Below are positions 1-15,709 of a stretch of DNA of 15,928 bases, piece after piece. The DNA comes from a virus (Duplodnaviria; Heunggongvirae; Uroviricota; Caudoviricetes). The position numbers and the translations under genes are program-made. Each line of letters opens with the position of its first letter. Within the stretch, counting starts at the first letter, position 1. Where the stretch lies: positions 1 through 15,928 of the IMG/VR virus record IMGVR_UViG_3300045988_076720; one strand, written 5' to 3'. Below the pieces are notes generated by a model. It saw nothing but the letters and a program-made list of their open reading frames with translations, had not been told where the DNA came from and did not search any database.

Positions 1-12
1 TCAGAGGTAGTC

Positions 13-522
13 ATGATGACGCTGATTATTCCGCGAAAGGAGGCTCCCGTGTCCGGTGAGGGTACGGTGGTCATCCCGCAACCGGCAGGCGACGAGCCGG
101 TGATTAAAAACACGTTCTTTTTTCCAGATATCGACCCGAAGCGCGTCCGGGAACGTATGCGCCTTGAGCAGACCGTCGCCCCCGCCCGTCTGCGTGAGGC
201 CATCAAGTCAGGCATGGCGGAAACAAATGCGGAGCTGTACGAGTACCGCGAACAGAAAATTGCTGCCGGTTTTACGCGTCTGGCGGACGTCCCGGCGGAC
301 GACATCGACGGTGAAAGCATCAAAGTTTTTTACTACGAGCGCGCCGTGTGTGCGATGGCGACCGCATCGCTTTATGAGCGTTATCGCGGCGTGGATGCCA
401 GTGCGAAAGGCGACAAGAAGGCCGACAGCATTGACAGCACCATTGATGAGCTGTGGCGGGATATGCGCTGGGCGGTGGCGCGCATCCAGGACAAGCCGCG
501 CTGCATCGTGAGTCAAATCTGA
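13..522 (+). CDS. L: capsid (head) completion protein
   Basis: 169-aa ORF (MMTLIIPRKEAPVSGEG...) recognised as P2 gpL; first gene of the block; stop overlaps the start of X (TGATG). Confidence 0.88.
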   Translation: MMTLIIPRKEAPVSGEGTVVIPQPAGDEPVIKNTFFFPDIDPKRVRERMRLEQTVAPARLREAIKSGMAETNAELYEYREQKIAAGFTRLADVPADDIDGESIKVFYYERAVCAMATASLYERYRGVDASAKGDKKADSIDSTIDELWRDMRWAVARIQDKPRCIVSQI

Positions 523-725
523 TGAAGACCTTTGCGCTACAGGGCGACACGCTCGACGCCATCTGTGTCCGGTATTACGGGCGCACTGAGGGCGTGGTTG
601 AGACCGTGCTCGCCGCAAATCCGGGACTGGCTGAACTGGGTGCGGTGCTGCTGCATGGCACCGCCGTCGAACTGCCCGACGTTCAGACCGCGCCCGTGGC
701 TGAAACTGTCAATCTGTGGGAGTAA
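522..725 (+). CDS. X: tail protein X
   Basis: 67-aa ORF MKTFALQGDTLDAICVRYYGRTEGVVETVLAANPGL... matching P2 gpX; in-frame ATG at 522 overlapping the L stop; ORF track shows the same frame extending from 453. Confidence 0.85.
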   Translation: MKTFALQGDTLDAICVRYYGRTEGVVETVLAANPGLAELGAVLLHGTAVELPDVQTAPVAETVNLWE

Positions 726-728
726 CGC

Positions 729-1010
729 ATGACAGCAGAAGAAAAAAGCGTCCTGTCGCTTTTCATGATTGGGGTGCTGATTGTTGTCGGCAAGGTGCTT
801 GCCGGTGGTGAACCCATCACCCCGCGTCTGTTTATCGGGCGCATGTTGCTCGGTGGTTTTGTCTCGATGGTTGCCGGTGTTGTTCTGGTGCAGTTTCCTG
901 ACCTGTCACTGCCTGCGGTGTGCGGCATCGGCTCCATGCTGGGTATCGCCGGTTATCAGGTGATTGAGATTGCCATTCAGCGCCGCTTTAAGGGCAGGGG
1001 GAAACCGTAA
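729..1010 (+). CDS. Y: holin
   Basis: 93-aa ORF, strongly hydrophobic with charged C-terminus (RRFKGRGKP); position and size match P2 holin Y. Confidence 0.88.
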   Translation: MTAEEKSVLSLFMIGVLIVVGKVLAGGEPITPRLFIGRMLLGGFVSMVAGVVLVQFPDLSLPAVCGIGSMLGIAGYQVIEIAIQRRFKGRGKP

Positions 1011-1501
1011 TGCCGGTAATTAACACGCATCAGAATATCGCCGCCTTTCTCGACATGCTGGCCGTGTCCGAAGGGACGGCGAATCATCCGCTGACGAAAA
1101 ACCGTGGCTATGACGTGATAGTCACCGGACTGGACGGGAAGCCGGAAATTTTCACCGACTACAGTGACCACCCGTTCGCGCATGGCCGACCGGCGAAGGT
1201 GTTTAACCGTCGCGGTGAAAAATCCACGGCCTCCGGTCGCTATCAGCAGCTTTACCTGTTCTGGCCGCATTACCGCAAACAGCTTGCCCTGCCGGATTTC
1301 AGTCCGTTGTCACAGGACAGGCTCGCCATTCAGTTGATCCGCGAACGCGGTGCACTGGATGACATCCGGGCGGGACGCATTGAGCGCGCCATTTCACGCT
1401 GTCGCAATATCTGGGCGTCCCTGCCGGGTTACGGTCAGCGTGAGCATCCACTGGAAAAACTGGTCACCGTCTGGCGTACCGCCGGCGGCGTACCGGCTTA
1501 A
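1010..1501 (+). CDS. K: endolysin (phage lysozyme-type muramidase)
   Basis: 163-aa ORF MPVINTHQNIAAFLDMLAVSEGT... matching P2 gpK; start overlaps holin stop (TAATG). Confidence 0.9.
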   Translation: MPVINTHQNIAAFLDMLAVSEGTANHPLTKNRGYDVIVTGLDGKPEIFTDYSDHPFAHGRPAKVFNRRGEKSTASGRYQQLYLFWPHYRKQLALPDFSPLSQDRLAIQLIRERGALDDIRAGRIERAISRCRNIWASLPGYGQREHPLEKLVTVWRTAGGVPA

Positions 1502-1515
1502 ACGGAGTAAACACC

Positions 1516-1941
1516 ATGAAGAAATTATCCCTTTCACTGATGCTGAATGTGTCGCTGGCGCTGATGCTGGCACTGTCCATGATTTACCCGCAGAGCGTGG
1601 CCGTCAATTTTGTCGCCGCCTGGGCGATTCTGGCGACGGTTATCTGTGTGGTTGCCGGTGGTGTCGGCGTGTATGCCACTGAGTATGTGCTGGAACGCTA
1701 CGGGCGGGAGCTGTCGCCGGAATCGCTGGCCGTGAAGATTGTCACGTCGCTGTTTTTACAGCCGGTGCCGTGGCGCAGGCGGGCAGCGGCTCTGGTGGTG
1801 ATGGTGGCGACGTTTATCTCGCTGGTCGCTGCCGGGTGGATTTTTACCGCGCTGATTTATCTTGTGGCGTCGCTGTTTTTCCGGCTGATACGTAAAGCCT
1901 GTCGTCAGCGTCTTGAGGGGCGGGAACCATGTCAAAGCTGA
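1516..1941 (+). CDS. lysA: lysis timing/accessory membrane protein LysA
   Basis: 141-aa ORF with several hydrophobic segments, directly after the endolysin, as in P2 lysA. Confidence 0.85.
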   Translation: MKKLSLSLMLNVSLALMLALSMIYPQSVAVNFVAAWAILATVICVVAGGVGVYATEYVLERYGRELSPESLAVKIVTSLFLQPVPWRRRAAALVVMVATFISLVAAGWIFTALIYLVASLFFRLIRKACRQRLEGREPCQS

Positions 1942-2354
1942 TGATTGTGCTGGTCGTGTTGCTATCGCTGGCGGTGGCCGGTCTGTTTCTGGCGAAGCAT
2001 GAAAACGCCAGGCTGCGCGTCTCGCTGGACAGGGCGAACAATGTCGCCAGCGGGCAGCAGACAACCATCACCATGCTGAAAAATCAGCTTCATGTTGCCC
2101 TCACCAGGGCAGACAAAAACGAGCTGGCGCAGGTGGCACTGCGTCAGGAACTGGAGAACGCCGCGAAGCGTGAAGCACAGCGCGAGAAAACCATCACGAG
2201 GTTACTGAATGAAAACGAAGATTTTCGCCGCTGGTACGGCGCTGGCCTGCCTGATGCTGTGCGCCGGTTGCACCAGCGTCCGGCCTGCACCGACGCCAGT
2301 GATTGTCCCCAACGTCTGCCCGAAAGTGAGCCTTTGCCCGATGCCGGGCAGTGA
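1929..2354 (+). CDS. lysB: i-spanin (Rz-like) LysB
   Basis: 141-aa ORF with N-terminal transmembrane anchor (MSKLMIVLVVLLSLAVAGLFLA) and charged coiled-coil-like periplasmic part; overlaps the lysA 3' end. Confidence 0.88.
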   Translation: MSKLMIVLVVLLSLAVAGLFLAKHENARLRVSLDRANNVASGQQTTITMLKNQLHVALTRADKNELAQVALRQELENAAKREAQREKTITRLLNENEDFRRWYGAGLPDAVRRLHQRPACTDASDCPQRLPESEPLPDAGQ

Positions 2355-2499
2355 CCCGGAGACGAACGGCGATTTAAGTGCCGATATCCGGCAGCTTGAG
2401 AACGCGCTGGCACGCTGTGCCAGCCAGGTAAAAATGATTAAACACTGTCAGGACGAAAACGATGCTCAAACCCGACAGCCTGCGCAGGGCGCTGACTGA
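2209..2499 (+). CDS. lysC: o-spanin (Rz1-like outer-membrane lipoprotein) LysC
   Basis: 96-aa ORF in the +1 frame starting inside lysB and running past it into R; signal peptide with lipobox (LMLCAGC) and Pro-rich mature region. Confidence 0.85.
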   Translation: MKTKIFAAGTALACLMLCAGCTSVRPAPTPVIVPNVCPKVSLCPMPGSDPETNGDLSADIRQLENALARCASQVKMIKHCQDENDAQTRQPAQGAD

Positions 2500-2929
2500 T
2501 GCCGTCACGGTGCTGAAAACTAACCCCGATATGCTGCGGATATTCGTGGATAACGGGAGTATTGCCTCCACACTGGCGACGTCGCTGTCATTTGAAAAGC
2601 GTTACACGCTCAATGTCATTGTGACCGACTTTACCGGTGATTTTGACCTGCTCATCGTGCCGGTGCTGGCGTGGCTGCGGGAAAATCAGCCCGACATCAT
2701 GACCACCGACGAAGGCCAGAAAAAGGGCTTCACGTTTTATGCGGACATCAACAATGACAGCAGCTTTGATATCAGCATCAGCCTGATGCTGACCGAGCGC
2801 ACGCTGGTCAGTGAGGTGGACGGCGCACTGCATGTGAAGAATATCCCGGAACCTCCGCCGCCGGAGCCGGTCACCCGCCCGGTGGAGCTTTATATCAATG
2901 GCGAACTGGTGAGCAAGTGGGATGAATGA
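2462..2929 (+). CDS. R: tail completion protein R
   Basis: 155-aa ORF MLKPDSLRRALTDAVTVLKTNPDMLRIFVDNG... matching P2 gpR by sequence and position. Confidence 0.88.
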   Translation: MLKPDSLRRALTDAVTVLKTNPDMLRIFVDNGSIASTLATSLSFEKRYTLNVIVTDFTGDFDLLIVPVLAWLRENQPDIMTTDEGQKKGFTFYADINNDSSFDISISLMLTERTLVSEVDGALHVKNIPEPPPPEPVTRPVELYINGELVSKWDE

Positions 2930-3374
2930 GTTTAAGCGTTTTGAAGACCGGCTGACCGGACTTATTGAATCGCTGTCACCGTCAGGGCGTCGGCGACTGA
3001 GCGCCGAACTGGCGAAACGTCTGCGGCAGAGTCAGCAGCGCCGGGTGATGGCACAGAAAGCCCCGGACGGCACACCCTACGCACCACGCCAGCAGCAGAG
3101 CGCCAGAAAAAAGACCGGTCGCGTTAAGCGAAAAATGTTTGCGAAACTTATCACCAGTCGTTTTTTGCATATCCGCGCCAGCCCGGAACAGGCATCAATG
3201 GAGTTTTACGGCGGAAAGTCACCGAAAATTGCGAGCGTGCATCAGTTCGGTCTGTCGGAAGAAAACCGAAAAGACGGTAAGAAAATTGATTATCCGGCGC
3301 GTCCCCTGCTCGGCTTTACCGGTGAGGATGTGCAGATGATTGAAGAGATTATTCTGGCGCACCTCGACCGTTAG
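2922..3374 (+). CDS. S: tail completion / virion morphogenesis protein S
   Basis: 150-aa ORF MNEFKRFEDRLTGLIESLSPSGRRRLS... matching P2 gpS; overlaps the R stop by 8 nt. Confidence 0.88.
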   Translation: MNEFKRFEDRLTGLIESLSPSGRRRLSAELAKRLRQSQQRRVMAQKAPDGTPYAPRQQQSARKKTGRVKRKMFAKLITSRFLHIRASPEQASMEFYGGKSPKIASVHQFGLSEENRKDGKKIDYPARPLLGFTGEDVQMIEEIILAHLDR

Positions 3375-3440
3375 TTGTGCCATTCCCGACACCTCATCGT
3401 CACATTGCCGCCGGTATGACACGGCGGCATCCTTCCCGTT

Positions 3441-4076
3441 ATGAACACTCTCGCAAATATTCAGGAACTCGCGCGCGCACTGCGCAACATGATCCGCACC
3501 GGCATTATCGTCGAAACCGACCTTAACGCCGGTCGCTGCCGTGTGCAGACTGGCGGCATGTGCACCGACTGGCTTCAGTGGCTGACCCATCGTGCCGGGC
3601 GTTCGCGCACATGGTGGGCACCTTCCGTGGGGGAACAGGTGCTGATTCTGGCCGTGGGCGGTGAACTCGACACGGCGTTCGTTCTGCCGGGGATTTATTC
3701 CGGCGATAACCCTGCGCCGTCTGCGTCGGCGGATGCACTGCATATCCGTTTCCCTGACGGGGCGGTGATTGAGTATGAACCCGAAACCAGTGCGCTTACG
3801 GTAAGCGGAATTAAAACGGCCAGCGTGACGGCTTCTGATTCTGTTACCGCCACGGTGCCGGTGGTCATGGTGAAAGCATCAACCCGCATCACTCTGGACA
3901 CGCCGGAGGTGGTCTGCACAAACAAGCTGATCACCGGCACGCTGGAAGTGCAGAAGGGCGGGACGATGCGCGGCAACATTGAACACACCGGCGGTGAACT
4001 CTCATCAAACGGTAAGGTACTGCATACCCATAAACACCCCGGTGACAGTGGCGGCACAACAGGGGGACCTCTATGA
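3441..4076 (+). CDS. V: baseplate spike / assembly protein V
   Basis: 211-aa ORF MNTLANIQELARALRNMIRTGIIVETDLNAGRCRVQTGG... matching P2 gpV; follows a 66-bp intergenic gap (expected late promoter position). Confidence 0.9.
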   Translation: MNTLANIQELARALRNMIRTGIIVETDLNAGRCRVQTGGMCTDWLQWLTHRAGRSRTWWAPSVGEQVLILAVGGELDTAFVLPGIYSGDNPAPSASADALHIRFPDGAVIEYEPETSALTVSGIKTASVTASDSVTATVPVVMVKASTRITLDTPEVVCTNKLITGTLEVQKGGTMRGNIEHTGGELSSNGKVLHTHKHPGDSGGTTGGPL

Positions 4077-4420
4077 CTGCGCGTTATCTCGGAATGAATC
4101 GCAGTGATGGCCTGACTGTCACTGACCTTGAGCATATCAGCCAGAGTATCGGCGATATCCTGCGCACACCGGTCGGCTCACGGGTGATGCGTCGTGATTA
4201 CGGCTCGTTGCTGGCGTCAATGATTGACCAGCCGCAGACCCCGGCGCTTGAGTTGCAGATTAAGGTCGCCTGTTACATGTCCGTGCTGAAATGGGAACCC
4301 CGCGTCACCCTGTCATCCGTCACCACTGAGCGCAGTTTTGACGGGCGAATGACGGTCACGTTAACCGGTCAGCACAACGACACCGGCCAGCCACTTTCGT
4401 TAACCATCCCTGTGAGTTGA
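4073..4420 (+). CDS. W: baseplate wedge protein W
   Basis: 115-aa ORF matching P2 gpW; ATGA overlap with the V stop. Confidence 0.9.
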   Translation: MTARYLGMNRSDGLTVTDLEHISQSIGDILRTPVGSRVMRRDYGSLLASMIDQPQTPALELQIKVACYMSVLKWEPRVTLSSVTTERSFDGRMTVTLTGQHNDTGQPLSLTIPVS

Positions 4421-4424
4421 AACC

Positions 4425-5333
4425 ATGCCGATTATCGACCTGAACCAGCTACCTGCACCGGATGTGGTCGAGGAGCTGGACTTTGAAACCATTCTCGCTG
4501 AACGCAAGGCGACACTGATTTCCCTTTACCCGGAAGACCAGCAGGAGGCGGTTGCCCGTACCCTGACGCTGGAATCCGAGCCTCTCGTCAAACTGCTGGA
4601 GGAAAATGCTTATCGTGAGCTTATCTGGCGTCAGCGTGTGAATGAGGCCGCACGGGCGGTAATGCTGGCCTGTGCCGCCGGTAATGACCTTGATGTGATT
4701 GGTGCCAATTACAACACCACGCGCCTGACTATCACCCCGGCAGATGATTCGGCCATCCCGCCGACACCGGCAGTGATGGAATCTGATACTGATTATCGTC
4801 TGCGTATTCAGCAGGCGTTTGAAGGTTTAAGCGTTGCCGGGTCGGTGGGTGCTTATCAGTATCATGGTCGCAGTGCCGACGGGCGTGTCGCGGATATCTC
4901 TGTCACCAGTCCGTCTCCTGCCTGCGTCACCATCTCTGTGCTGTCCCGTGAAAATAACGGCGTCGCATCCGAAGACCTGCTGGCCGTGGTGCGTAACGCC
5001 CTTAATGGCGAGGACGTCAGGCCGGTGGCCGACCGCGTGACCGTGCAGTCTGCCGCCATCGTTGAATACCAGATAAACGCCACGCTTTACCTTTACCCTG
5101 GTCCCGAAAGCGAACCCATCCGCGCTGCTGCCGTGAAAAAACTGGAAGCGTACATCACGGCACAGCACCGGCTGGGGCGCGACATCCGTCTGTCTGCCAT
5201 TTATGCCGCTTTGCATGTGGAAGGCGTGCAGCGTGTCGAGCTGGCCGCACCACTGGCCGACATCGTGCTCAACAATACGCAGGCGTCTTTCTGTACTGAA
5301 TACAGCGTCGTGACGGGAGGCTCGGATGAGTGA
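4425..5333 (+). CDS. J: baseplate assembly protein J
   Basis: 302-aa ORF MPIIDLNQLPAPDVVEELDFETILAERKATLISLYPEDQQ... matching P2 gpJ. Confidence 0.9.
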   Translation: MPIIDLNQLPAPDVVEELDFETILAERKATLISLYPEDQQEAVARTLTLESEPLVKLLEENAYRELIWRQRVNEAARAVMLACAAGNDLDVIGANYNTTRLTITPADDSAIPPTPAVMESDTDYRLRIQQAFEGLSVAGSVGAYQYHGRSADGRVADISVTSPSPACVTISVLSRENNGVASEDLLAVVRNALNGEDVRPVADRVTVQSAAIVEYQINATLYLYPGPESEPIRAAAVKKLEAYITAQHRLGRDIRLSAIYAALHVEGVQRVELAAPLADIVLNNTQASFCTEYSVVTGGSDE

Positions 5334-5937
5334 TTCGCGACTGCTGCCAACCGGCTCATCACCGCTTGAAGTTGCCGCCGCAAAAGCCTGTGCGGAAATT
5401 GAAAAAACACCGGTCAGTATTCGTGAGCTGTGGAACCCGGACACCTGCCCGGCAAATCTGCTGCCGTGGCTGGCGTGGTCATTTTCGGTTGACCGCTGGG
5501 ATGATAAGTGGCCGGAAGCGACAAAACGCGCTGTTATCCGCGATGCGTATTTCATTCACTGCCATAAGGGCACTATAGGCGCAATCCGGCGTGTGGTGGA
5601 GCCGCTCGGCTATCTGATTGAGGTGAGGGAGTGGTGGCAACTCAACGAGGAGCCGGGGACGTTCCGCATCGTTGTTGGCGTGCTTGAGCAGGGTATTACC
5701 GAGGAAATGTATCAGGAGCTGGAGCGCCTCGTTGCTGATGCAAAACCGGCAAGCCGCCATCTGACGGGACTGGCTATCAGTTTAAGTACAACCGGCAACA
5801 TTTTTGCCGGTGCGGGATGCTATCACGGTGACGCCCTGACGGTTTATCCCTACACCCCGGAGGCCATTATTGTCGGAGGGGATTATTTCCCGGCCTCGGC
5901 CATTCATTTAATTGATAACCTGAGAGTAAACGCATGA
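5326..5937 (+). CDS. I: baseplate / tail protein I
   Basis: 203-aa ORF MSDSRLLPTGSSPLEVAAAKACAEIEK... matching P2 gpI; overlaps J and H ends. Confidence 0.88.
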   Translation: MSDSRLLPTGSSPLEVAAAKACAEIEKTPVSIRELWNPDTCPANLLPWLAWSFSVDRWDDKWPEATKRAVIRDAYFIHCHKGTIGAIRRVVEPLGYLIEVREWWQLNEEPGTFRIVVGVLEQGITEEMYQELERLVADAKPASRHLTGLAISLSTTGNIFAGAGCYHGDALTVYPYTPEAIIVGGDYFPASAIHLIDNLRVNA

Positions 5938-7256
5938 CAGTGAAATACTACGCCATTCTGACTAATCAGGGCGCAGCACGGCTGGCTAACGCGACGATGC
6001 TCGGCAGTAAGCTGAATCTGACGCAAATGGCCGTTGGTGATGCGAATGGTGTCTTGCCGACACCAGACCCGGCACAGACAAAACTGATTAACCAGAAACG
6101 CATCGCGCCGCTGAATCTTCTGAGTGTTGACCCGAACAACCAGAGCCAGATTATTGCGGAGCAAATCATCCCTGAGAACGAGGGCGGATTCTGGATCCGT
6201 GAGATTGGGCTTTATGATGATGAAGGCGTACTCATTGCGGTGGCGAACTGCCCGGAAACGTACAAACCGCAGTTGCAGGAAGGCAGTGGTCGTACCCAGA
6301 CTATCCGCATGATTCTGGTTGTCACGAATACCGAAGCTATTACGCTGAAAATCGACCCGTCGGTGGTACTGGCGACCCGTAAATATGTGGATGATGAAGT
6401 CCTGGAATTAAGGCTGTATGTGGATGACCAGATGAGCAAACACATTGCAGCACAGGACCCTCATACCCAGTATGCACAGAAACATAATCCGACATTTACC
6501 GGAGAACCAAAAGCGCCGACGCCTGCCGCAGGAAATAACACCACGCGGATTGCGACCACTGCGTTTGTACAGGCCGCTATTACCGCTCTGATTAACGGTG
6601 CGCCTGACACGCTGGACACACTGAAAGAAATTGCCGCGGCCATTAACAATGACCCGAAATTCAGCACCACCATTAACAATGCGCTGGCAGGTAAACAACC
6701 GCTGGACAATACGCTGACTCATTTGAGTGGAAAGGATGTTGCCGGTCTTCTCGCATACCTTGGTTTGGGAGAAGGCTCAGCGTTACCCGTTGGTGTGCCT
6801 GTTCCGTGGCCTTCAGCCACACCACCAACAGGCTGGCTGAAATGCAACGGTGCACCTTTTTCTGCCGAAGAGTACCCCAAACTGGCAAAGGCTTACCCAA
6901 AGTTAAAATTACCGGATTTGCGCGGTGAGTTTATTCGCGGGTGGGATGATGGGCGAGGTGTTGATTCCGCGAGACTGCTACTTTCAAGTCAGGCGGCATC
7001 TATCCTTGAACATAACCATGAAATGCATGGATGGACAGGGAACCCACTCATGGCTAGAGATGTTTATTCATCCGGTTCATCCGTATTTGCGGTGCAGTTG
7101 AGCATTGGCGATGGCGGGTTATTGTATTCGTGGAAGGATGGGAGTGGAACAACAAATGACAGTAAACGAATGGATAGAACAAATCATGTCAGTTCCGGCG
7201 CCGGTGATGGTAGCCCGCGAAACATTGCATTTAACTACATTGTGAGGGCTGCATAA
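5934..7256 (+). CDS. H: tail fiber protein H: constant N-terminal ~276 codons (5934-6761) fused to the currently expressed variable receptor-binding cassette (6762-7256)
   Basis: 440-aa ORF after gpI; C-terminal part has a tail-collar-type motif (PVGVPVPWPS...GWLKCNGA...LPDLRGEFIRGWDDGRGVD); constant/variable junction ...LLAYLGLGE lies on the 26-bp crossover site at 6748-6773. Confidence 0.88.
   Translation: MTVKYYAILTNQGAARLANATMLGSKLNLTQMAVGDANGVLPTPDPAQTKLINQKRIAPLNLLSVDPNNQSQIIAEQIIPENEGGFWIREIGLYDDEGVLIAVANCPETYKPQLQEGSGRTQTIRMILVVTNTEAITLKIDPSVVLATRKYVDDEVLELRLYVDDQMSKHIAAQDPHTQYAQKHNPTFTGEPKAPTPAAGNNTTRIATTAFVQAAITALINGAPDTLDTLKEIAAAINNDPKFSTTINNALAGKQPLDNTLTHLSGKDVAGLLAYLGLGEGSALPVGVPVPWPSATPPTGWLKCNGAPFSAEEYPKLAKAYPKLKLPDLRGEFIRGWDDGRGVDSARLLLSSQAASILEHNHEMHGWTGNPLMARDVYSSGSSVFAVQLSIGDGGLLYSWKDGSGTTNDSKRMDRTNHVSSGAGDGSPRNIAFNYIVRAA
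6748..6773. repeat. hix/gix-like 26-bp inversion crossover site, left (inside H coding sequence)
   Basis: TTCTCGCATACC-TT-GGTTTGGGAGAA: two imperfect 12-bp half-sites around a 2-bp core, resembling Hin/Gin sites as I recall them; 15 bp (TTGGTTTGGGAGAAG) are identical in inverted orientation to 8592-8606. Confidence 0.7.
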
Positions 7257-7859
7257 ATGGAACAGGCTATTTTGGGAAAAGACGGTTACGCTTTAAATGA
7301 TGGGGAAATCATCGTACATAACTATGATGGCGAAACGCGGGAATATATTTCTACATCAACTGAATATCTTGCGGTTGGCGTCGGTATCCCGGCATGTTCC
7401 TGTCTGGATGCACCAGGTACACATAAAGCTGGTTATGCAATCTGTCGCTCTGTAGATTTAAATTCATGGGAATATGTGCCAGACCATCGCGGTGAAGTTG
7501 TCTATAGTACCGAAACGGGAGATACCAAAGAAATCACAGTTCCGGGTGATTACCCTGAAAATACAACCACTATCGCCCCATTAACGCCATACGATGAATG
7601 GGATGGTGAGAAATGGGTGACGGATACCGAGGCACAGCATAGCGCCGCAGTAGGCGCGGCAGAAGCACAGCGTCAGTCACTGATTGATACTGCAATGGCT
7701 TCCATTAGTCTGATTCAACTGAAATTACAGGCCGGGCGGAAGCTGATGCAGACAGAAAACACCCGACTTAACGCTGTGCTGAATTACATTGACGCGGTGA
7801 CGGCAACAGATACCAGCACCGCGCCGGATGTCATCTGGCCTGAACTGCCGGAGGAGTAG
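7257..7859 (+). CDS. G: tail fiber assembly protein (chaperone), paired with the currently expressed fiber C-terminus
   Basis: 200-aa ORF immediately after the H stop (TAAATG); C-terminal motif ...DTSTAPDVIWPELPEE shared with the convergent alternative assembly gene. Confidence 0.85.
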   Translation: MEQAILGKDGYALNDGEIIVHNYDGETREYISTSTEYLAVGVGIPACSCLDAPGTHKAGYAICRSVDLNSWEYVPDHRGEVVYSTETGDTKEITVPGDYPENTTTIAPLTPYDEWDGEKWVTDTEAQHSAAVGAAEAQRQSLIDTAMASISLIQLKLQAGRKLMQTENTRLNAVLNYIDAVTATDTSTAPDVIWPELPEE

Positions 7860-8274
7860 GCCATTCAATATCTGGCGCACTGGAAGTATCGACCAGCTCC
7901 AGTGCGTCCAGATAATCCAGCCACAAATTATATTGCGCCAGTTCCTCACCTTTCAGACGACCAATAGCCGCTTTACCAACCCATTGTCTACTGTTCATAT
8001 AATCGTTGGCCTGATTAATCAATTGCTGCTTTTTAGTTTCGGCTGATGCAATTTGTTCTTCACGTGTTGGTGGAGGAATATCTGCCCATGCAGGCAGTCC
8101 ATCTTCTCCAACACATCTGTATTTTCCTTCTGGTGGTGTGTCATAGAAATATTCCCTGAAAATTACTTCGTCTATATCAACACCTTTTTCTTCAGGCCAT
8201 TCACCTTTTTCAACATAAAGAGACTGAAGTTCGTAAGGATATGCCAGGTTGTTTACGTACAGATATTTCATCAT
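7831..8274 (-). CDS. alternative tail fiber assembly protein (G'/U'-like), silent partner inside the invertible segment
   Basis: 147-aa - strand [32 protein letters not shown]... with C-terminus ...LVDTSSAPDIEWPTPPAVQAR homologous to the gpG C-terminus; start overlaps the stop of the upstream - strand fiber cassette (TAATG); 3' end overlaps G convergently by 29 bp. Confidence 0.82.
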   Translation of the reverse strand: MMKYLYVNNLAYPYELQSLYVEKGEWPEEKGVDIDEVIFREYFYDTPPEGKYRCVGEDGLPAWADIPPPTREEQIASAETKKQQLINQANDYMNSRQWVGKAAIGRLKGEELAQYNLWLDYLDALELVDTSSAPDIEWPTPPAVQAR

Positions 8275-8648
8275 TACCAGCCCTTAGCGAAAAACGCACC
8301 ACCTTCAAGACCATAATTGCAGTGAGCTATGAAGCCGGTAGTGCTCCAGTTGGTCGCCCCCCACATATTCCCGCCCCCGAAACCACCATCGCACACAATT
8401 ACAATGCCCGGTGTCTGTGTAAATGGAATCGGGAATGAAACATTGGCGGATACAGGCCCGTGTTCACCAGGAAAACTAATTCGTCCCCACTGTTCAATTG
8501 AACCATCTGGCATTTTTCGCCAGCCTGAACCTGATGCATATGATGACATATCAGGTATCTGATTTTCCCCTGTTCCCACATTCCGTTTTGCCGCTTCTCC
8601 CAAACCAACGTTTATGAAAATGCAGAGATAACGGGCAACTGGCATCAT
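8274..8648 (-). CDS. alternative tail-fiber C-terminal cassette (Hv'/Sv'-like); functional part is 8274-8606, expressed only as an H fusion after inversion
   Basis: - strand ORF whose segment after the crossover ([35 protein letters not shown]...) is Gly-rich fiber-tip-like; it contains the same GLGE codons (ggt ttg gga gaa) as H at the crossover, in frame. The ATG at 8648 lies outside the segment and is probably not a real start. Confidence 0.7.
8595..8620. repeat. hix/gix-like 26-bp inversion crossover site, right (inverted relative to 6748-6773)
   Basis: TTCTCCCAAACC-AA-CGTTTATGAAAA; its reverse complement shares the 15-bp block TTGGTTTGGGAGAAG with the H site; lies ~55 bp upstream of the invertase start. 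Confidence 0.7.
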
Positions 8649-8675
8649 CTCCGGTTTTTATTCAGGGGGATGCTC

Positions 8676-9269
8676 ATGCTTATTGGCTATGTACGCGTGT
8701 CAACAAATGACCAGAACACGGAATTGCAGCGTAATGCGCTGGAGTGTGCAGGATGTGAGCTGATTTTTGAGGATAAAATCAGCGGCACGAAGTCTGACCG
8801 ACCGGGACTGAAAAAACTGCTCAGAACATTATCAGCAGGTGACACTCTGGTAGTCTGGAAGCTGGACAGGCTGGGGCGTAGTATGCGGCATCTGGTCATT
8901 CTGGTTGAGGAACTGCGCGAACGCGGCGTTAATTTTCGCAGCCTGACAGATGCTATTGATACCAGCACGCCGATGGGGCGTTTTTTCTTTCATGTGATGG
9001 GTGCCCTGGCTGAAATGGAACGAGAACTCATTGTCGAGCGGACACGCGCCGGACTGGAAGCGGCCAGAGCTAAAGGTCGTATTGGTGGCAGACGTCCGAA
9101 GCTCACCGCGAGTGAGTGGGAACAGGCAGGACGGTTGCTGGCTGCGGGTGAATCACGTCAACGCGTGGCGCTGATTTTTGATATTGGCCTGTCCACGCTC
9201 TATAAAAAATTCCCCTCATCAGCGACAAAGAATAAATTGTGTCATCCCTTAGCCAACCGGGACAAATAG
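8676..9269 (+). CDS. serine DNA invertase (Gin/Hin/Cin/Pin family site-specific recombinase)
   Basis: N-terminus MLIGYVRVSTNDQNTELQRNAL... with catalytic-Ser motif, VVWKLDRLGRS, GRFFFHVMGALAEMERELIVERT and a C-terminal HTH (GRIGGRRPKLT...LSTLYKK) are hallmark invertase sequences. ORF track starts at 8670 (MLMLIGY...); the ATG at 8676 has better spacing from the GGGGG Shine-Dalgarno-like run. Confidence 0.93.
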   Translation: MLIGYVRVSTNDQNTELQRNALECAGCELIFEDKISGTKSDRPGLKKLLRTLSAGDTLVVWKLDRLGRSMRHLVILVEELRERGVNFRSLTDAIDTSTPMGRFFFHVMGALAEMERELIVERTRAGLEAARAKGRIGGRRPKLTASEWEQAGRLLAAGESRQRVALIFDIGLSTLYKKFPSSATKNKLCHPLANRDK

Positions 9270-9328
9270 CCTGACATCTCCGGCACAACTGAAAATATCA
9301 CTCACCCATTAACCACGGAGTTAAACGG

Positions 9329-10519
9329 ATGAGTGACTATCATCACGGCGTGCAGGTGCTGGAGATTAACGACGGCACCCGCGTCATTTCCACCGTATCC
9401 ACTGCCATTGTCGGCATGGTCTGCACGGCCAGCGATGCGGATGCGGAAACCTTCCCCCTCAATAAACCGGTGCTGATTACCAATGTGCAGAGCGCAATTG
9501 CAAAGGCCGGTAAAAAAGGCACGCTGGCGGCATCGTTGCAGGCTATCGCTGACCAGTCAAAACCGGTCACCGTTGTTGTGCGTGTGGAAGACGGCACCGG
9601 CGACGACGAGGAAACGAAACTTGCGCAGACCGTTTCCAATATCATCGGCACCACCGACGAAAACGGTCAGTACACCGGACTGAAAGCCCTGCTGGCGGCA
9701 GAGTCGGTAACCGGTGTTAAACCGCGTATTCTCGGTGTGCCGGGACTGGACACCAAAGAGGTGGCTGTTGCACTGGCATCCGTCTGTCAGAAGCTGCGCG
9801 CTTTCGGGTATATCAGCGCATGGGGCTGTAAAACCATTTCCGAGGTGAAAGCCTACCGCCAGAATTTCAGCCAGCGTGAGCTTATGGTCATCTGGCCGGA
9901 TTTCCTCGCATGGGATACGGTCGCCAGTACCACCGCCACCGCGTATGCCTCCGCCCGTGCGCTGGGTCTGCGCGCTAAAATCGACCAGGAGCAGGGCTGG
10001 CATAAAACGCTGTCCAACGTCGGGGTGAACGGTGTTACCGGCATCAGCGCGTCCGTATTCTGGGATTTGCAGGAGTCCGGCACCGATGCTGACCTGCTTA
10101 ACGAGTCAGGCGTCACAACGCTGATTCGCCGTGACGGTTTCCGCTTCTGGGGTAACCGTACCTGCTCTGATGACCCGCTGTTCCTCTTTGAAAACTACAC
10201 CCGCACCGCGCAGGTGCTGGCCGACACGATGGCTGAGGCGCACATGTGGGCGGTGGACAAGCCCATCACCGCAACGCTGATTCGCGACATCGTTGACGGC
10301 ATCAATGCCAAATTCCGTGAGTTGAAAACAAACGGCTATATCGTGGATGCGACCTGCTGGTTCAGCGAAGAATCCAACGATGCGGAAACCCTCAAGGCCG
10401 GAAAACTGTATATCGACTACGACTATACACCGGTACCTCCTCTTGAAAACCTGACCCTGCGCCAGCGTATTACCGATAAATACCTGGCAAATCTGGTCAC
10501 CTCGGTTAACAGCAATTAA
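9329..10519 (+). CDS. FI: contractile tail sheath protein
   Basis: 396-aa ORF MSDYHHGVQVLEINDGTRVISTVSTAIVGMV... matching P2 FI in sequence and length. Confidence 0.92.
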   Translation: MSDYHHGVQVLEINDGTRVISTVSTAIVGMVCTASDADAETFPLNKPVLITNVQSAIAKAGKKGTLAASLQAIADQSKPVTVVVRVEDGTGDDEETKLAQTVSNIIGTTDENGQYTGLKALLAAESVTGVKPRILGVPGLDTKEVAVALASVCQKLRAFGYISAWGCKTISEVKAYRQNFSQRELMVIWPDFLAWDTVASTTATAYASARALGLRAKIDQEQGWHKTLSNVGVNGVTGISASVFWDLQESGTDADLLNESGVTTLIRRDGFRFWGNRTCSDDPLFLFENYTRTAQVLADTMAEAHMWAVDKPITATLIRDIVDGINAKFRELKTNGYIVDATCWFSEESNDAETLKAGKLYIDYDYTPVPPLENLTLRQRITDKYLANLVTSVNSN

Positions 10520-10531
10520 GGAGCCTGACCG

Positions 10532-11047
10532 ATGGCAATGCCGCGCAAACTCAAGTTAATGAACGTCTTTCTGAACGGCTACAGCTATCAGGGCGTCGCG
10601 AAGTCCGTCACGCTACCAAAACTGACCCGTAAGCTCGAAAACTATCGCGGTGCGGGGATGAACGGCAGCGCACCGGTAGACCTCGGCCTTGATGACGATG
10701 CGCTGTCAATGGAGTGGTCGCTCGGTGGCTTCCCGGATTCGGTTATCTGGGAGCTTTACGCCGCAACCGGTGTGGATGCCGTACCGATTCGTTTTGCAGG
10801 TTCTTACCAGCGCGACGATACCGGCGAAACGGTGGCCGTCGAGGTGGTCATGCGTGGACGTCAGAAAGAAATCGACACCGGCGAGGGCAAACAGGGAGAA
10901 GACACCGAGTCGAAAATCTCCGTGGTCTGCACCTATTTCCGGCTGACGATGGACGGTAAGGAGCTGGTCGAAATCGACATCAACATGATTGAGAAGGTGA
11001 ACGGCGTCGACCGGCTGGAGCAACACCGCCGCAATATCGGCCTGTGA
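10532..11047 (+). CDS. FII: tail tube protein
   Basis: 171-aa ORF MAMPRKLKLMNVFLNGYSYQGVAKSVTLPKL... matching P2 FII; GGAG RBS upstream. Confidence 0.92.
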   Translation: MAMPRKLKLMNVFLNGYSYQGVAKSVTLPKLTRKLENYRGAGMNGSAPVDLGLDDDALSMEWSLGGFPDSVIWELYAATGVDAVPIRFAGSYQRDDTGETVAVEVVMRGRQKEIDTGEGKQGEDTESKISVVCTYFRLTMDGKELVEIDINMIEKVNGVDRLEQHRRNIGL

Positions 11048-11054
11048 TTTTCAT

Positions 11055-11075
11055 CCGGTCAGCCTGGCTGACCGG
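11055..11075 (+). other. perfect palindrome / predicted RNA hairpin in the FII-E intergenic region
   Basis: CCGGTCAGC-CTG-GCTGACCGG: 9-bp perfect stem with 3-nt loop, seen directly in sequence; followed by TTAACCCC, so no U-tract. Confidence 0.5.
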
Positions 11076-11103
11076 TTAACCCCGATTCAGAAGTGAGAAA
11101 ACC

Positions 11104-11379
11104 ATGAACAAAGAAAACGTCATTACCCTGGACAATCCGGTCAAACGTGGTGAGCAGGTTATCGAACAGGTCACGCTGATGAAACCCAATGCCGGGACGC
11201 TGCGCGGTGTCAGTCTGGCTGCGGTCGCAAACTCCGAAGTCGATGCACTGATTAAAGTGCTGCCGCGCATGACGGCACCGATGCTGACCGAGCAGGAGGT
11301 CGCCGCGCTGGAACTGCCTGACCTTGTGGCGCTGGCCGGTAAGGTGGTCGGTTTTTTGTCGCCGAACTCGGTGCAGTGA
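11104..11379 (+). CDS. E: tail assembly chaperone E
   Basis: 91-aa ORF MNKENVITLDNPVKRGEQVIEQVTLMKPNAG... matching P2 gpE; slippery heptamer near its 3' end. Confidence 0.9.
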   Translation: MNKENVITLDNPVKRGEQVIEQVTLMKPNAGTLRGVSLAAVANSEVDALIKVLPRMTAPMLTEQEVAALELPDLVALAGKVVGFLSPNSVQ

Positions 11380-11531
11380 CGTTTCCGAAAAATCTGTCGG
11401 TCGATGACCTGATGGCGGATGTGGCAGTGATATTTCACTGGCCGCCATCAGAACTGTATCCCATGAGCCTGACCGAACTCATCACATGGCGCGAAAAGGC
11501 GCTCCGGCGAAGCGGAAACACGAATGAGTAA
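11104..11531 (+). CDS. E+E': tail assembly chaperone E+E' produced by programmed -1 ribosomal frameshift at 11352-11358
   Basis: Slippery heptamer T-TTT-TTG in the E frame; the -1 frame is open from 11358 to TAA at 11529-11531 (checked codon by codon), giving 85 + 57 = 142 aa; overlaps the T start, as in P2. Confidence 0.8.
11352..11358 (+). other. -1 programmed frameshift slippery site (TTTTTTG)
   Basis: X-XXY-YYZ heptamer in the zero frame of E (codons TTT TTG at 11353-11358). Confidence 0.8.
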
Positions 11532-12252
11532 CAATGTAAAATTACAGGTATTGCTCAGGGCTGTTGACCAGGCATCCCGTCCGTTTAAATCCATCCGCAC
11601 AGCGAGCAAATCGCTGTCGGGGGATATCCGGGAAACACAAAAATCACTGCGCGAGCTGAACGGTCAGGCATCCCGTATTGAGGGATTTCGCAAGACCAGT
11701 GCACAGCTCGCCGTGACTGGTCATGCACTTGAAAAGGCACGGCAGGAGGCCGAAGCCCTTGCCACACAGTTTAAAAACACCGAACGTCCGACCCGTGCTC
11801 AGGCGAAAGTGCTGGAATCCGCAAAGCGTGCGGCGGAGGACTTACAGGCGAAATATAACCGCCTGACGGATTCCGTTAAACGCCAGCAGCGGGAACTGGC
11901 CGCTGTGGGAATTAATACCCGCAATCTTGCACATGATGAGCAGGGACTGAAAAACCGTATCAGTGAAACCACTGCACAGCTTAACCGTCAGCGTGACGCG
12001 CTGGCGCGTGTCAGTGCGCAACAGGCAAAACTTAACGCAGTAAAACAGCGTTATCAGGCAGGCAAGGAACTGGCCGGAAATATGGCCTCAGTGGGCGCTG
12101 CCGGTGTGGGGATTGCGGCGGCGGGAACGATGGCCGGAGTTAAGTTGCTGATGCCCGGTTATGAGTTTGCGCAGAAAAACTCAGAATTGCAGGCTGTGCT
12201 CGGAGTGGCAAAAGACTCCGCCGAAATGACCGCACTACGCAAACAGGCGTGA
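11524..12252 (+). CDS. T: tail tape measure protein T, N-terminal portion ending at an in-frame TGA
   Basis: 242-aa ORF MSNNVKLQVLLRAVDQASRPFKSIRTAS..., coiled-coil-like and Ala/Gln/Arg-rich; same frame as the 12370-13971 ORF. Confidence 0.85.
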   Translation: MSNNVKLQVLLRAVDQASRPFKSIRTASKSLSGDIRETQKSLRELNGQASRIEGFRKTSAQLAVTGHALEKARQEAEALATQFKNTERPTRAQAKVLESAKRAAEDLQAKYNRLTDSVKRQQRELAAVGINTRNLAHDEQGLKNRISETTAQLNRQRDALARVSAQQAKLNAVKQRYQAGKELAGNMASVGAAGVGIAAAGTMAGVKLLMPGYEFAQKNSELQAVLGVAKDSAEMTALRKQA

Positions 12253-12369
12253 CAGCTCGGGGCCAATACCGCCGCTTCGGCGGATGATGCGGCCGGTGCA
12301 CAGATAATCATCGCGAAAGCGGGTGGGGATGTTGATGCCATTCAGGCGGCAACGCCGGTCACGCTGAAT

Positions 12370-13971
12370 ATGGCGCTGGCGAACCGCCGCACGATGGAAG
12401 AAAACGCCGCCCTGCTGATGGGGATGAAATCCGCCTTTCAGCTTTCAAACGATAAGGTCGCTCATATCGGGGATGTTCTCTCCATGACGATGAACAAAAC
12501 CGCCGCCGATTTTGACGGCATGAGCGATGCCTTGACCTATGCCGCACCTGTGGCAAAAAATGCCGGTGTCAGCATTGAAGAAACCGCCGCAATGGTCGGG
12601 GCGCTGCATGATGCAAAAATCACAGGCTCAATGGCGGGGACGGGAAGCCGTGCCGTGTTAAGCCGCCTGCAGGCACCGACGGGAAAAGCATGGGATGCAC
12701 TCAAAGAGCTTGGAGTGAAAACCTCAGACAGCAAGGGAAACACCCGGCCAATATTTACCATTCTGAAAGAAATGCAGGCCAGTTTTGAGAAAAACCGGCT
12801 CGGTACTGCCCAGCAGGCTGAATACATGAAAACCATTTTCGGGGAGGAGGCCAGCTCAGCCGCCGCTGTGCTGATGACTGCCGCCTCAACCGGAAAGCTG
12901 GACAAACTGACCGCTGCGTTTAAAGCCTCAGACGGGAAGACCGCAGAGCTGGTAAATATCATGCAGGACAACCTCGGTGGTGACTTTAAGGAGTTTCAGT
13001 CCGCTTATGAGGCGGTGGGGACTGACCTGTTTGACCAGCAGGAAGGCGCACTGCGTAATCTCACGCAGACGGCCACAAAGTATGTGTTAAAACTCGACGG
13101 CTGGATCCAGAAAAACAAATCACTGGCGTCAACCATCGGCATCATTGTCGGTGGTGCACTGGCACTGACTGGTGTCATCGGTGCCATTGGCCTCGTAGCC
13201 TGGCCGGTTATCACCGGCATTAATGCCATCATCGCGGCAGCAGGCGCAATGGGTGCAATCTTCACGACGGTTGGCAGTGCTGTTATAACCGCCATCGGGG
13301 CGATTAGCTGGCCGGTTGTGGCCGTGGTGGCCGCCATTGTCGCCGGGGCGTTGCTTATCCGTAAATACTGGGAGCCTGTCAGCGCATTCTTTGGCGGTGT
13401 GGTGGAAGGGCTGAAAGCGGCATTTGCGCCGGTGGGGGAACTGTTCACGCCACTTAAACCGGTGTTTGACTGGCTGGGTGAAAAGTTACAGGCCGCGTGG
13501 CAGTGGTTTAAAAACCTGATTGCCCCGGTCAAAGCCACCCAGGACACCCTGAACCGTTGCCGTGACACGGGGGTCATGTTCGGGCAGGCACTGGCTGACG
13601 CGCTGATGCTGCCGCTTAATGCGTTCAACAAACTGCGCAGTGGTATTGACTGGGTACTGGAAAAACTCGGTGTTATCAACAAAGAGTCAGACACACTTGA
13701 CCAGACCGCCGCAAGGACTCATGCCGCCACGTATGGCACCGGTGGTTATATTCCGGCGACCAGCTCTTATGCAGGCTATCAGGCTTATCAGCCGGTTACG
13801 GCACCGGCTGGCCGCTCTTATGTGGACCAGAGTAAAAACGAATATCACATCAGTCTGACGGGCGGTACTGCGCCGGGGACTCAGCTCGACCGCCAGTTAC
13901 AGGATGCGCTCGAAAAATACGAGCGGGATAAACGTGCGCGCGCCCGTGCCAGCATGATGCATGACGGTTAA
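12370..13971 (+). CDS. T: tail tape measure protein T, C-terminal portion (first ATG after the internal stop; frame is open from 12253)
   Basis: 533-aa ORF with Gly/Ala-rich hydrophobic repeats (IGIIVGGALALTGVIGAIGLVAWPVITGINAIIAAAGAMGAI...) typical of tape measure proteins; same frame as 11524-12252. Confidence 0.85.
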   Translation: MALANRRTMEENAALLMGMKSAFQLSNDKVAHIGDVLSMTMNKTAADFDGMSDALTYAAPVAKNAGVSIEETAAMVGALHDAKITGSMAGTGSRAVLSRLQAPTGKAWDALKELGVKTSDSKGNTRPIFTILKEMQASFEKNRLGTAQQAEYMKTIFGEEASSAAAVLMTAASTGKLDKLTAAFKASDGKTAELVNIMQDNLGGDFKEFQSAYEAVGTDLFDQQEGALRNLTQTATKYVLKLDGWIQKNKSLASTIGIIVGGALALTGVIGAIGLVAWPVITGINAIIAAAGAMGAIFTTVGSAVITAIGAISWPVVAVVAAIVAGALLIRKYWEPVSAFFGGVVEGLKAAFAPVGELFTPLKPVFDWLGEKLQAAWQWFKNLIAPVKATQDTLNRCRDTGVMFGQALADALMLPLNAFNKLRSGIDWVLEKLGVINKESDTLDQTAARTHAATYGTGGYIPATSSYAGYQAYQPVTAPAGRSYVDQSKNEYHISLTGGTAPGTQLDRQLQDALEKYERDKRARARASMMHDG

Positions 13972-13985
13972 GGAGGTGACGAAAA

Positions 13986-14465
13986 ATGATGCTCGCGTTA
14001 GGTATGTTTGTTTTTATGCGCCAGACGCTGCCACACCAGACCATGCAGCGCGAATCAGATTATCGCTGGCCGTCAAATTCCCGTATCGGTAAACGGGATG
14101 CCTTTCAGTTTCTCGGTGTGGGTGAGGAAAACATGACGCTTGCCGGTGTGCTTTATCCCGAACTGACCGGCGGAAAGCTGACGATGACCACGCTCAGGCT
14201 GATGGCAGAGGAAGGCCGGGCGTGGCCGTTGCTGGATGGCACCGGCATGATTTACGGCATGTATGTCATCAGCAGGGTGAGTGAAACAGGGAGTATTTTC
14301 TTTGCAGACGGCACACCCCGGAAAATTGATTTTACGCTGTCACTTACCCGCGTTGATGAATCACTGGCCGCGCTTTATGGCGATATCGGTAAACAGGCGG
14401 AATCGCTCATCGGTAAGGCGGGCAGTATGGCAACTAAATTCACGGGTATGACGGGGGCGGGATAA
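13986..14465 (+). CDS. U: tail protein U
   Basis: 159-aa ORF MMLALGMFVFMRQTLPHQTMQRESDYRWPSNS... matching P2 gpU; GGAGGTGA RBS upstream. Confidence 0.9.
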   Translation: MMLALGMFVFMRQTLPHQTMQRESDYRWPSNSRIGKRDAFQFLGVGEENMTLAGVLYPELTGGKLTMTTLRLMAEEGRAWPLLDGTGMIYGMYVISRVSETGSIFFADGTPRKIDFTLSLTRVDESLAALYGDIGKQAESLIGKAGSMATKFTGMTGAG

Positions 14466-15628: not shown

Positions 15629-15709
15629 TGTGTTTTATTTATCTGTTTGTTTTATAAGGATAAATTAACTAAAATGGCACCATCAACAAAACCGGAAGAG
15701 GTGCTCGCG

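Follow-up and report, generated by a model that had tools for sequence, protein, structure and literature searches.

A probable Pin-type invertible tail-fibre segment in a P2-like Escherichia coli prophage

The P segment of the e14 element of E. coli K-12 and its invertase PinE were reportedly described by Plasterk and van de Putte in 1985. This lambdoid element is defective, and its fibre is a short stub (StfP, 209 aa). Its inverted repeat, TTGGTTTGGGAGAAGG, has been validated experimentally, and flipping of the segment reportedly gives rise to StfE2 and inhibits T2 adsorption (PMC12529663). The G segment of Mu (Gin) and the C segment of P1 (Cin) follow a related logic, in which a constant N-terminus of S is joined to Sv or Sv' and accompanied by the chaperones U or U'. 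These segments are larger (Mu about 3 kb, P1 4.2 kb), and neither phage is P2-like. Invertase-linked fibre segments are, however, common and published in P2-like prophages. Coexisting orientations were shown experimentally for P2-like prophages of EPEC E2348/69, one of which carries three inverted repeats and forms a shufflon with four variants (PMC4272514), and in Salmonella Fels-2 a fibre inversion adjoins fin (PMC7953296). Multi-site shufflons with three or more sites are also represented by Min of p15B. Furthermore, in Carotovoricin Er (Nguyen et al., 2001) and other P2-type tailocins with contractile tails, inversion switches the fibre C-terminus and the target range (PMC4272514 and PMC13280938).

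We compared these systems with a stretch of 15,928 nucleotides of viral DNA, here called the window. We conclude, with a probability of about 90%, that the window carries a two-state Pin-type invertible tail-fibre segment ("P segment") of a P2-like (Peduovirus) E. coli prophage. The anatomy of the locus, the frame compatibility, the homology of all parts and the presence of the segment in either orientation in prophages that are otherwise identical were observed directly. The features are listed in Table 1. The switch is of an already known kind and brings no new principle, and, in view of the published P2-like cases, the graft onto a P2-like fibre that the sequence-only reading described is not novel. 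Going by published descriptions, the window shares with the P2-like segments, including those of EPEC and Fels-2, the P2 I-H-G context, an inverted chaperone and cassette, the invertase and the FI sheath gene, while cassette alleles vary between the phages. Likened in the same way, Carotovoricin Er and the other tailocins are headless bacteriocins, whereas the window spans head-completion and lysis genes up to ogr, like a complete P2-like phage.

Table 1. Features of the invertible fibre region, in positions of the window.
Feature	Position	Strand	Remarks
Tail-fibre gene H, constant N-terminal region (~275-276 aa)	5934..6759	+	upstream of crossover site
Left 26-bp recombination site (pixL-like)	6748..6773		within H; TTCTCGCATACC-TT-GGTTTGGGAGAA; core TT 6760-6761
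Variable cassette Sv (164 aa from GLGE), now fused to H	6760..7256	+	collar-type receptor-binding tip
Chaperone G (200 aa) for tail-fibre assembly, now co-expressed with H	7257..7859	+	PF02413 Caudo_TAP, E=1.5e-29
Second chaperone G' (147 aa), silent as the segment now lies	7831..8274	-	PF02413 Caudo_TAP, E=3.2e-33
Second variable cassette Sv' (110 aa counted from GLGE), silent as the segment now lies	8274..8608	-
Right 26-bp recombination site	8595..8620		before invertase; TTCTCCCAAACC-AA-CGTTTATGAAAA; core AA 8607-8608
Serine DNA invertase (197 aa, Pin/Gin/Cin/Hin family)	8676..9269	+	outside invertible segment
Putative recombinational (Fis) enhancer	8694..8765		5' end of invertase gene; position homology with P1 cin

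Judged by sequence comparison, the closest relative is the Pin/P-segment system of e14, and Mu G and P1 C are more distant. The 15-bp block TTGGTTTGGGAGAAG is common to the window and the e14 repeat, and both loci are ordered as constant fibre part, cassette and chaperone facing chaperone, cassette and invertase. In both, the invertase lies outside the segment beside the right site, and the 3' ends of the chaperone genes overlap by 29 nt. The right site is identical to e14 pixR (26/26), and the left one matches pixL at 23 of 26 positions, counted by hand from the printed sequences. G is 85% identical to e14 TfaE, and the invertase shares 86% identity with PinE, as compared to 78% with Gin and 78.5% with Cin. 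Differences concern the length of the segment (1,847 bp in the window, 1,797 bp in e14) and the fibre itself, which is a P2-type H in a near-complete tail module and not a short stub. Sv' gave no BLASTP match to the e14 StfP protein. Among the proteins of the variable region, the sole BLASTP match to Mu or P1 was that of G' to U' (~30% identity); Sv and Sv' had none to Mu or P1 S/U proteins. We therefore dropped the idea that the cassettes are relatives of Mu/P1 Sv/Sv' and prefer relatedness to e14. The Mu/P1 switch logic that had been proposed from the letters applies, but the nearest kin is e14.

The first-ranking inverted repeat detected between 5900 and 9300 is formed by 6748-6774 and 8594-8620 (27 nt, 81% complementary, arms 1819 nt apart). 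Within it, the exact 15-mer common with e14 has just two copies in the window, at 6760-6774 (+) and 8594-8608 (-); we estimate the chance of an exact inverted 15-mer in 16 kb at about 3e-5. At both sites 12-bp half-sites flank a 2-bp core, as in gix and cix, and the core dinucleotides TT and AA, which P1 cix has in common with the window, are inverted relative to each other. The half-sites agree with those taken from Mu, P1 and e14, with AAACC at positions 8-12. Repeat search and 15-mer count thus bear out the sequence-only reading, which had described two inverted 26-bp sites with a shared 15-bp block and the half-site/2-bp-core layout of Hin and Gin sites, and every one of its coordinates and lengths that we checked holds. 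A search of the window for a third crossover site, using the core block with up to three mismatches, returned two occurrences. Likewise, a scan with the half-site consensus found paired half-sites at the two sites only, with a total number of matches not above chance. The locus is a two-state switch and not of the multi-site shufflon type; in this it differs from the three-repeat EPEC prophage and from p15B Min.

The constant part of H contains the Phage_tail_fib N-terminal domain (PF12571, E=1.3e-62), and between residues 184 and 266 it shares 63-76% identity with repeats of P1 S. This part is unaltered in H (440 aa) and in the product of an in-silico inversion, H' (386 aa). Sv carries a Collar domain (PF07484, E=2e-14) and is 52% identical to the stfE cassette of e14. 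Sv' matches Gp53-like_C (PF21882, E=9.8e-8) and a tail fiber family (phrog_1396, E=6.5e-26), and the C-terminal 98 aa of its chaperone G' are 62% identical to e14 TfaP. The genes of G and G' converge in the window with 3' ends that overlap by 29 nt. Translation agrees with the earlier proposal that the crossover falls on codons for G-L-G-E, in frame at both sites: these residues are encoded by the block both in H, on the + strand, and in the cassette on the - strand, as compared to G-L-R-E, likewise in frame, at the P1 crossover. Inversion between the cores in silico yields an in-frame H' in which constant H (276 aa) is joined to Sv', and the predicted C-termini of 164 and 110 aa were both reproduced. 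The minus-strand cassette is in frame and has fibre homology, and the sequence-only reading thereby withstands the check that it had set for this cassette. The proposed swap from G to G' is reproduced in silico as well, since the inversion places G' right behind H', with the H' stop overlapping the G' start (TAATG). According to their Pfam domains, Collar and Gp53-like_C, the two tips belong to unrelated families, and we assume that they differ in receptor specificity.

Both orientations are found in public genomes. The window is colinear with the genome of E. coli EA2 at about 97%, except for 6760-8611, which is inverted there (98.9% identity). The alignment breaks on the left within 6760-6774 and on the right within 8594-8611, and the window inverted in silico aligns to EA2 end to end. 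In EA2, Sv' is fused in frame to the constant part of H. An E. coli draft contig (JADIHE010000001.1, here L008) codes for the exact H of the window. Its flanks are 100.000% identical to the EA2 chromosome (8,841 + 6,663 bp) while the segment lies in opposite orientations, and once L008 is inverted at the core dinucleotides, a single mismatch in 17,323 bp separates it from EA2. At the protein level, the exact 440-aa H is present in public databases as WP_196611948.1 and the exact predicted 386-aa H', with Sv' fused in frame to constant H, as WP_249960176.1. The segment thus occurs in either orientation, and the breakpoints coincide with the sites, the evidence being between isolates. The sequence-only reading would have fallen with a single orientation; two were found in genomes of essentially the same prophage, again between isolates. 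In principle, such differences could stem from RecA-dependent homologous recombination between short inverted repeats, and an inverted repeat is indeed present, though nothing more specific speaks for this. The identical stretch is only 15 bp long, well below the length that RecA needs for efficient recombination. In addition, the sites have the 12-2-12 architecture of serine invertase sites, the repeats are identical to the validated e14 sites, and a cognate invertase adjoins the segment. We regard the RecA route as extremely improbable.

The invertase contains the domains PF00239 Resolvase (E=3e-52) and PF02796 HTH_7 and matches the DNA invertase family phrog_125 (E=2.5e-101). Its residues 1-182 align with the Gin crystal structure 3uj3 (E=2.9e-94), and likewise with 4m6f (E<1e-92). 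The catalytic-serine motif GYVRVSTNDQ (Ser9) is conserved. Inversion is probably catalysed by this protein. In the P1 record, cin nt 19-90 are annotated as "enhancer of Cin-mediated C-segment inversion". The corresponding stretch of the window aligns without gaps at 78% identity and is separated from the right crossover site by about 97-146 bp; it is also conserved coding sequence, so that the similarity does not count as independent evidence. With the Fis consensus in view, 15-mers of the form G-N13-C occur at nt 22-36 and 71-85 of the invertase gene in the window and in gin, and in cin at the second position only. A Fis-dependent enhancer may reside near the start of the invertase gene, a position that would be conserved with Mu and P1.

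According to the mechanism that we propose, the invertase, encoded just outside the segment, would bind both inverted 26-bp sites, presumably assisted by host Fis bound at the putative enhancer within its own gene. It would then cut both 2-bp cores (6760-61 and 8607-08) in a staggered manner and invert 1,847 bp. Transcription of H is expected to start outside the segment, in the P2 late V-W-J-I-H-G operon, and therefore no promoter would move; what would change is the coding sequence downstream of the G-L-G-E codons. In the present orientation H would end in the 164-aa collar-type tip, followed by the 200-aa chaperone G, and in the other orientation in the 110-aa gp53-like tip, followed by the 147-aa chaperone G'. 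Consequently, a lysogen population would release particles with two alternative receptor-binding tips. This would correspond to the textbook mechanism of phage host-range bet-hedging through site-specific inversion.

The surroundings of the segment fit the P2-type tail module that had been suggested from the sequence. All 21 EA2 proteins compared are colinear on the window (94-100% identity), and the gene order, on which annotation and Pfam names agree, is that of P2 late genes: L-X-Y-K-lysABC-R-S-V-W-J-I-H-G ... FI-FII-E-T-U-D-ogr. The best phage matches are Peduovirus genomes. Peduovirus magyaro (KC618326) and Salmonella phage MET_P1_103_31, both with annotated DNA invertases, cover 78-81% of a 3.4-kb query at 91-94% identity. 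Among the 21 tail and lysis genes compared with EA2, all are intact save the tape-measure gene T, which has an in-frame TGA at 12250-12252 (codon 243). If this stop is real, no tails would be built and the switch would have no host-range effect in this copy. The stop is missing from a 99.93% identical contig, L011, and lies within a cluster of 4 substitutions in 14 nt; it may be an assembly or sequencing error.

The T stop would fit a frozen relic, that is, an inherited architecture that has stopped flipping in this copy or has no relevance in a defective prophage, with the orientation differences between isolates being old events. That the orientation evidence for this copy comes from different isolates and not from within one culture would also fit. 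We nevertheless consider a relic unlikely. The invertase has its full length and shares 99% identity with that of EA2, and the left site does not differ between the window, L008 and EA2. In the right site a single base varies, 8615 in the outer half-site, which is T in the window and in e14 pixR, and A in L008 and EA2. The flanks of L008 and EA2 are 100% identical although the orientations are opposite, and the flip between them is hence very recent on the scale of point mutations. The absence of the T stop from L011 also speaks against this alternative.

A different possibility is that the inversion serves the host. The Sv' reading frame runs on across the right site to an ATG at 8648, and this 124-aa ORF (8274-8648) on the silent side might be made as a short protein that blocks the adsorption of other phages, in the way reported for StfE2. 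e14, with the same sites and a homologous cassette and chaperone set, has a comparable minus-strand ORF reading through its site, as a comparison of the leaders revealed. The window, in turn, holds a near-complete phage module, with the compared genes intact apart from T, and the classical host-range role is therefore the simplest reading. A promoter and terminator scan of 5800-9400 detected promoter-like matches no more often than in shuffled sequence, and the GGAG in front of ATG 8648 abuts it with essentially zero spacing, as read from the sequence. None of these results supports expression of the ORF. A role for the host in place of the phage thus appears very unlikely. An unlikely extension of the host-range switch is that the invertase-side cassette is not silent and that the 124-aa ORF (-) would yield a fibre-tip protein in free form, making a dual switch. 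After inversion, the equivalent ORF would then carry the collar tip. By covering receptors on the host surface, such a free tip might guard the lysogen against other phages, a role recently claimed for StfE2, and the switch would be a phage host-range device and a phase-variable host defence at once.

The two-state host-range switch has consequences for annotation. Neither the minus-strand "gp53-like domain protein" nor the second "tail fiber assembly protein" would be an independent gene: the former would represent the other possible 3' end of H, and the latter the chaperone belonging to it. Host-range predictions for P2-like prophages should take in both tips. Cassette counts in 5,426 complete E. 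coli genomes show that the system is widespread and modular. The collar cassette was joined to constant H in 439 genomes and adjoined the invertase in 859, and the gp53-like cassette in 6 and 50, respectively; these junction-probe counts are not clean orientation ratios, since the constant-H half of the probes shows lower conservation than the invertase half, and the invertase-side probes match e14-type loci as well. Contig breaks or apparent mis-assemblies at the site are to be expected in short-read and metagenome assemblies. In 27 metagenome contigs with an identical 40-nt end of constant H, the sequences diverge exactly past the shared block into at least three cassette types, and two of these contigs terminate at the site.

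The tail-fibre gene H and its surroundings were assigned domains by Pfam and PHROG scans (see table). The neighbouring genes make up a complete P2-type late region (head completion, lysis genes, R, S, V, W, J, I, then FI, FII, E, T, U, D and ogr), which is colinear with the annotated P2-like prophage of the E. coli EA2 chromosome (NZ_CP069710.1) at 94-100% protein identity. Residues 1-182 of the invertase align with the Gin crystal structures 3uj3 and 4m6f (E<1e-92), and the serine motif GYVRVSTNDQ is kept.

Genes of the fibre region, with window coordinates and domain assignments
Feature	Position	Strand	Product and domains
H	5934-7256	+	440-aa ORF; Phage_tail_fib N-terminal domain (Pfam), Collar domain in variable part
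G	7257-7859	+	200-aa ORF; Caudo_TAP tail-fibre assembly protein
G'	7831-8274	-	147-aa ORF; Caudo_TAP tail-fibre assembly protein
gp53-like cassette ORF	8274-8648	-	124 aa; Gp53-like_C; phrog_1396 'tail fiber protein'
invertase	8676(8670)-9269	+	197/199 aa; Resolvase + HTH_7; phrog_125 'DNA invertase'
FI sheath gene	start 9329

The longest inverted repeat that a repeat finder returned for 5900-9300 pairs 6748-6774 with 8594-8620 (27 nt, 81% complementary), and the exact 15-mer TTGGTTTGGGAGAAG occurs only twice, at 6760-6774 (+) and 8594-8608 (-). In both sites 12-bp half-sites flank a 2-bp core, TTCTCGCATACC-TT-GGTTTGGGAGAA on the left and TTCTCCCAAACC-AA-CGTTTATGAAAA on the right, with the core dinucleotides in inverted orientation. 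ORF listing, repeat finding and splitting of the sites bore out all coordinates and lengths of the sequence-only reading, including cassettes of 164 and 110 aa counted from GLGE. Its claim that H stays in frame with the minus-strand cassette also held: in-silico inversion between the core dinucleotides yields a predicted product H' of 386 aa, ending ...FAKGW and with Gp53-like_C/phrog_1396 fibre homology. The H' stop codon then overlaps the start of the G' ORF (TAATG), an arrangement by which fibre and chaperone genes are usually coupled in translation. A search for the 15-mer block and for half-sites found no third crossover site in the window, and the system is thus a two-state switch and not a shufflon.

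Public genomes contain both orientations. Positions 1-6774 and 8594-15928 are colinear with EA2 (96.5-97.4%), while 6760-8611 matches it on the opposite strand (98.9%); once inverted in silico, the window aligns with EA2 over its full length in one block. In the annotation of EA2, the 147-aa chaperone comes directly behind a 386-aa fibre. Exact copies of the 440-aa H (WP_196611948.1) and of the predicted H' (WP_249960176.1) are present in public E. coli data. The contig JADIHE010000001.1 (GCA_015731195.1) encodes the exact window H. On either side of the switch (8,841 and 6,663 bp) it matches EA2 at 100.000%, the 1,852-bp segment in between is reversed, and after inversion at the core dinucleotides it equals EA2 with 1 mismatch in 17,323 bp. 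One and the same prophage is thus present in both isolates, and essentially the sole difference is a flip at exactly the predicted points. Judged by this comparison of isolates, which answers the question more directly than expected, the segment appears to flip at the predicted core points. RecA-type recombination is an unlikely cause of the orientation differences, since the repeats share only 15 identical bp and match invertase sites. The proposed inversion mechanism is thus supported by the sites, the invertase family and the genomes in both orientations.

We extracted the sites of Mu, P1 and the e14 element of MG1655 for comparison. The right-hand site of the invertible e14 P segment is identical to that of the window (26/26), whereas the left site differs at 3/26 positions (hand count). 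Sequencing and qPCR have shown inversion at the e14 inverted repeat TTGGTTTGGGAGAAGG (PMC12529663), which is the window 15-bp block plus one base. Mu gix and P1 cix share the layout and half-site consensus (...AAACC-NN-GGTTT...), and cix also the TT/AA core. The invertase is 86% identical to PinE of e14, 78% to Gin of Mu and 78.5% to Cin of P1. From e14, TfaE shows 85% identity to G, TfaP 62% to the C-terminal part of G', and the StfE cassette 52% to the collar cassette joined to H. The BLASTP comparison with Mu and P1 S/U proteins that the sequence-only reading had proposed gave no match for either the collar or the gp53-like cassette. Positions 8694-8765 are the counterpart (78% identity) of P1 cin nt 19-90, annotated in the P1 record as inversion enhancer. 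Their distance to the right crossover is ~97-146 bp, compared with ~95 bp in Mu between gixR and the centre of the equivalent first 15-mer. As the same DNA is conserved coding sequence, we can only infer a putative enhancer here.

G and G' are convergent and share 29 nt at their 3' ends (7831-7859), an overlap of the same length as in e14 tfaP/tfaE (L007, 3518-3546), and the overlapping chaperones have a common C-terminal motif, ...TSxAPD(I/V)xWPxxP. Within the constant part of H, residues 184-266 (6483-6731) are 63-76% identical to two tandem P1 S repeat units (aa 256-329 and 331-412), one example of the fibre-shaft modules that unrelated phages are known to share in mosaic fashion.

Using 400-nt junction probes against 5,426 complete E. 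coli genomes and counting places that covered >=80% of the probe, we found each cassette in both positions. The collar cassette was joined to the constant N-terminal part of H (H-const) in 439 genomes and adjoined the invertase in 859, the gp53-like cassette in 6 and 50, respectively; flank divergence both raises and lowers these counts, which are not clean orientation ratios. Furthermore, 27 metagenome contigs with identical last 40 nt of H-const plus site part ways directly after ...GGGAGAAG. Twelve run into the collar cassette, seven into the gp53-like cassette and two more into a more distant relative of it, three into a second collar-like allele and one into something else. The remaining two stop at the site: L018 (match 5510-5549 of 5550 nt) 1 nt and L040 (3438-3477 of 3477 nt) 0 nt past the shared block. 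Such ends are typical of an assembly graph that branches at an invertible junction, and they hint that the two samples contain a mixture of orientations or cassettes. In metagenomes, at least three or four different cassette families follow the identical 40-nt end of H-const; the fibre cassettes are modular. In E. coli 2017.02.04CC (L004), 5572-5984 holds an unrelated silent-position cassette opposite window 8135-8520 in a prophage otherwise 96-97% identical, and L016, L030, L033 and L035 show likewise modularity.

The idea of a Mu/P1 logic newly grafted onto P2 did not stand, as P2-like invertible fibre switches have already been published. In EPEC E2348/69, coexisting orientations were detected in a two-state P2-like prophage and in a second one with three repeats (Goldberg et al., PMC4272514). 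In Fels-2, a fibre inversion adjoins fin, a pin homologue (Zaworski et al., PMC7953296), and a 2024 preprint reports a DNA invertase with inverted adjacent genes as frequent at this P2-like hotspot (10.1101/2024.10.15.618418). Passages in PMC4272514 and PMC13280938 also describe invertible fibres in P2-type tailocins. Among phage-collection records, 137 match the 3.4-kb region; these include genomes of Peduovirus that share its gene order and have a DNA invertase annotated. Consequently, the switch is a known system, correctly recognised.

The minus-strand cassette ORF crosses the right site to an ATG at 8648, and its leader resembles that of e14 stfE (window 8621-8675). Its conservation may reflect either expression of the ORF or an overlap with both the site and the region upstream of the invertase. 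According to a 2025 paper (PMC12529663), flipping of the e14 P segment gives rise to StfE2, a short chimeric protein that blocks T2 adsorption; this raises the possibility that ORF 8274-8648 is expressed and acts in host defence. We consider this improbable; a promoter scan of the region gave no support for it.

The tape-measure gene T (11524-13971, 815 aa) has an in-frame TGA at codon 243 (12250-12252, CGC to TGA), within a cluster of 4 substitutions over 14 nt (12250-12263) when compared with metagenome contig L011, which is 99.93% identical and has an unbroken T. CGC and a full T gene were also seen in every other relative examined. Either the prophage is defective or the sequence is locally in error, and the latter may be the case; a real stop would make the prophage tail-defective. 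The match to L011 spans 4796-15256, and the window probably originates from a gut metagenome or from an E. coli lineage not yet sampled. The nearest same-orientation relative among complete genomes reaches no more than 93.8% at the left junction, and 4169-8493 is 100% identical over 4,325 bp to a human gut metagenome contig (L013, ERR589754).
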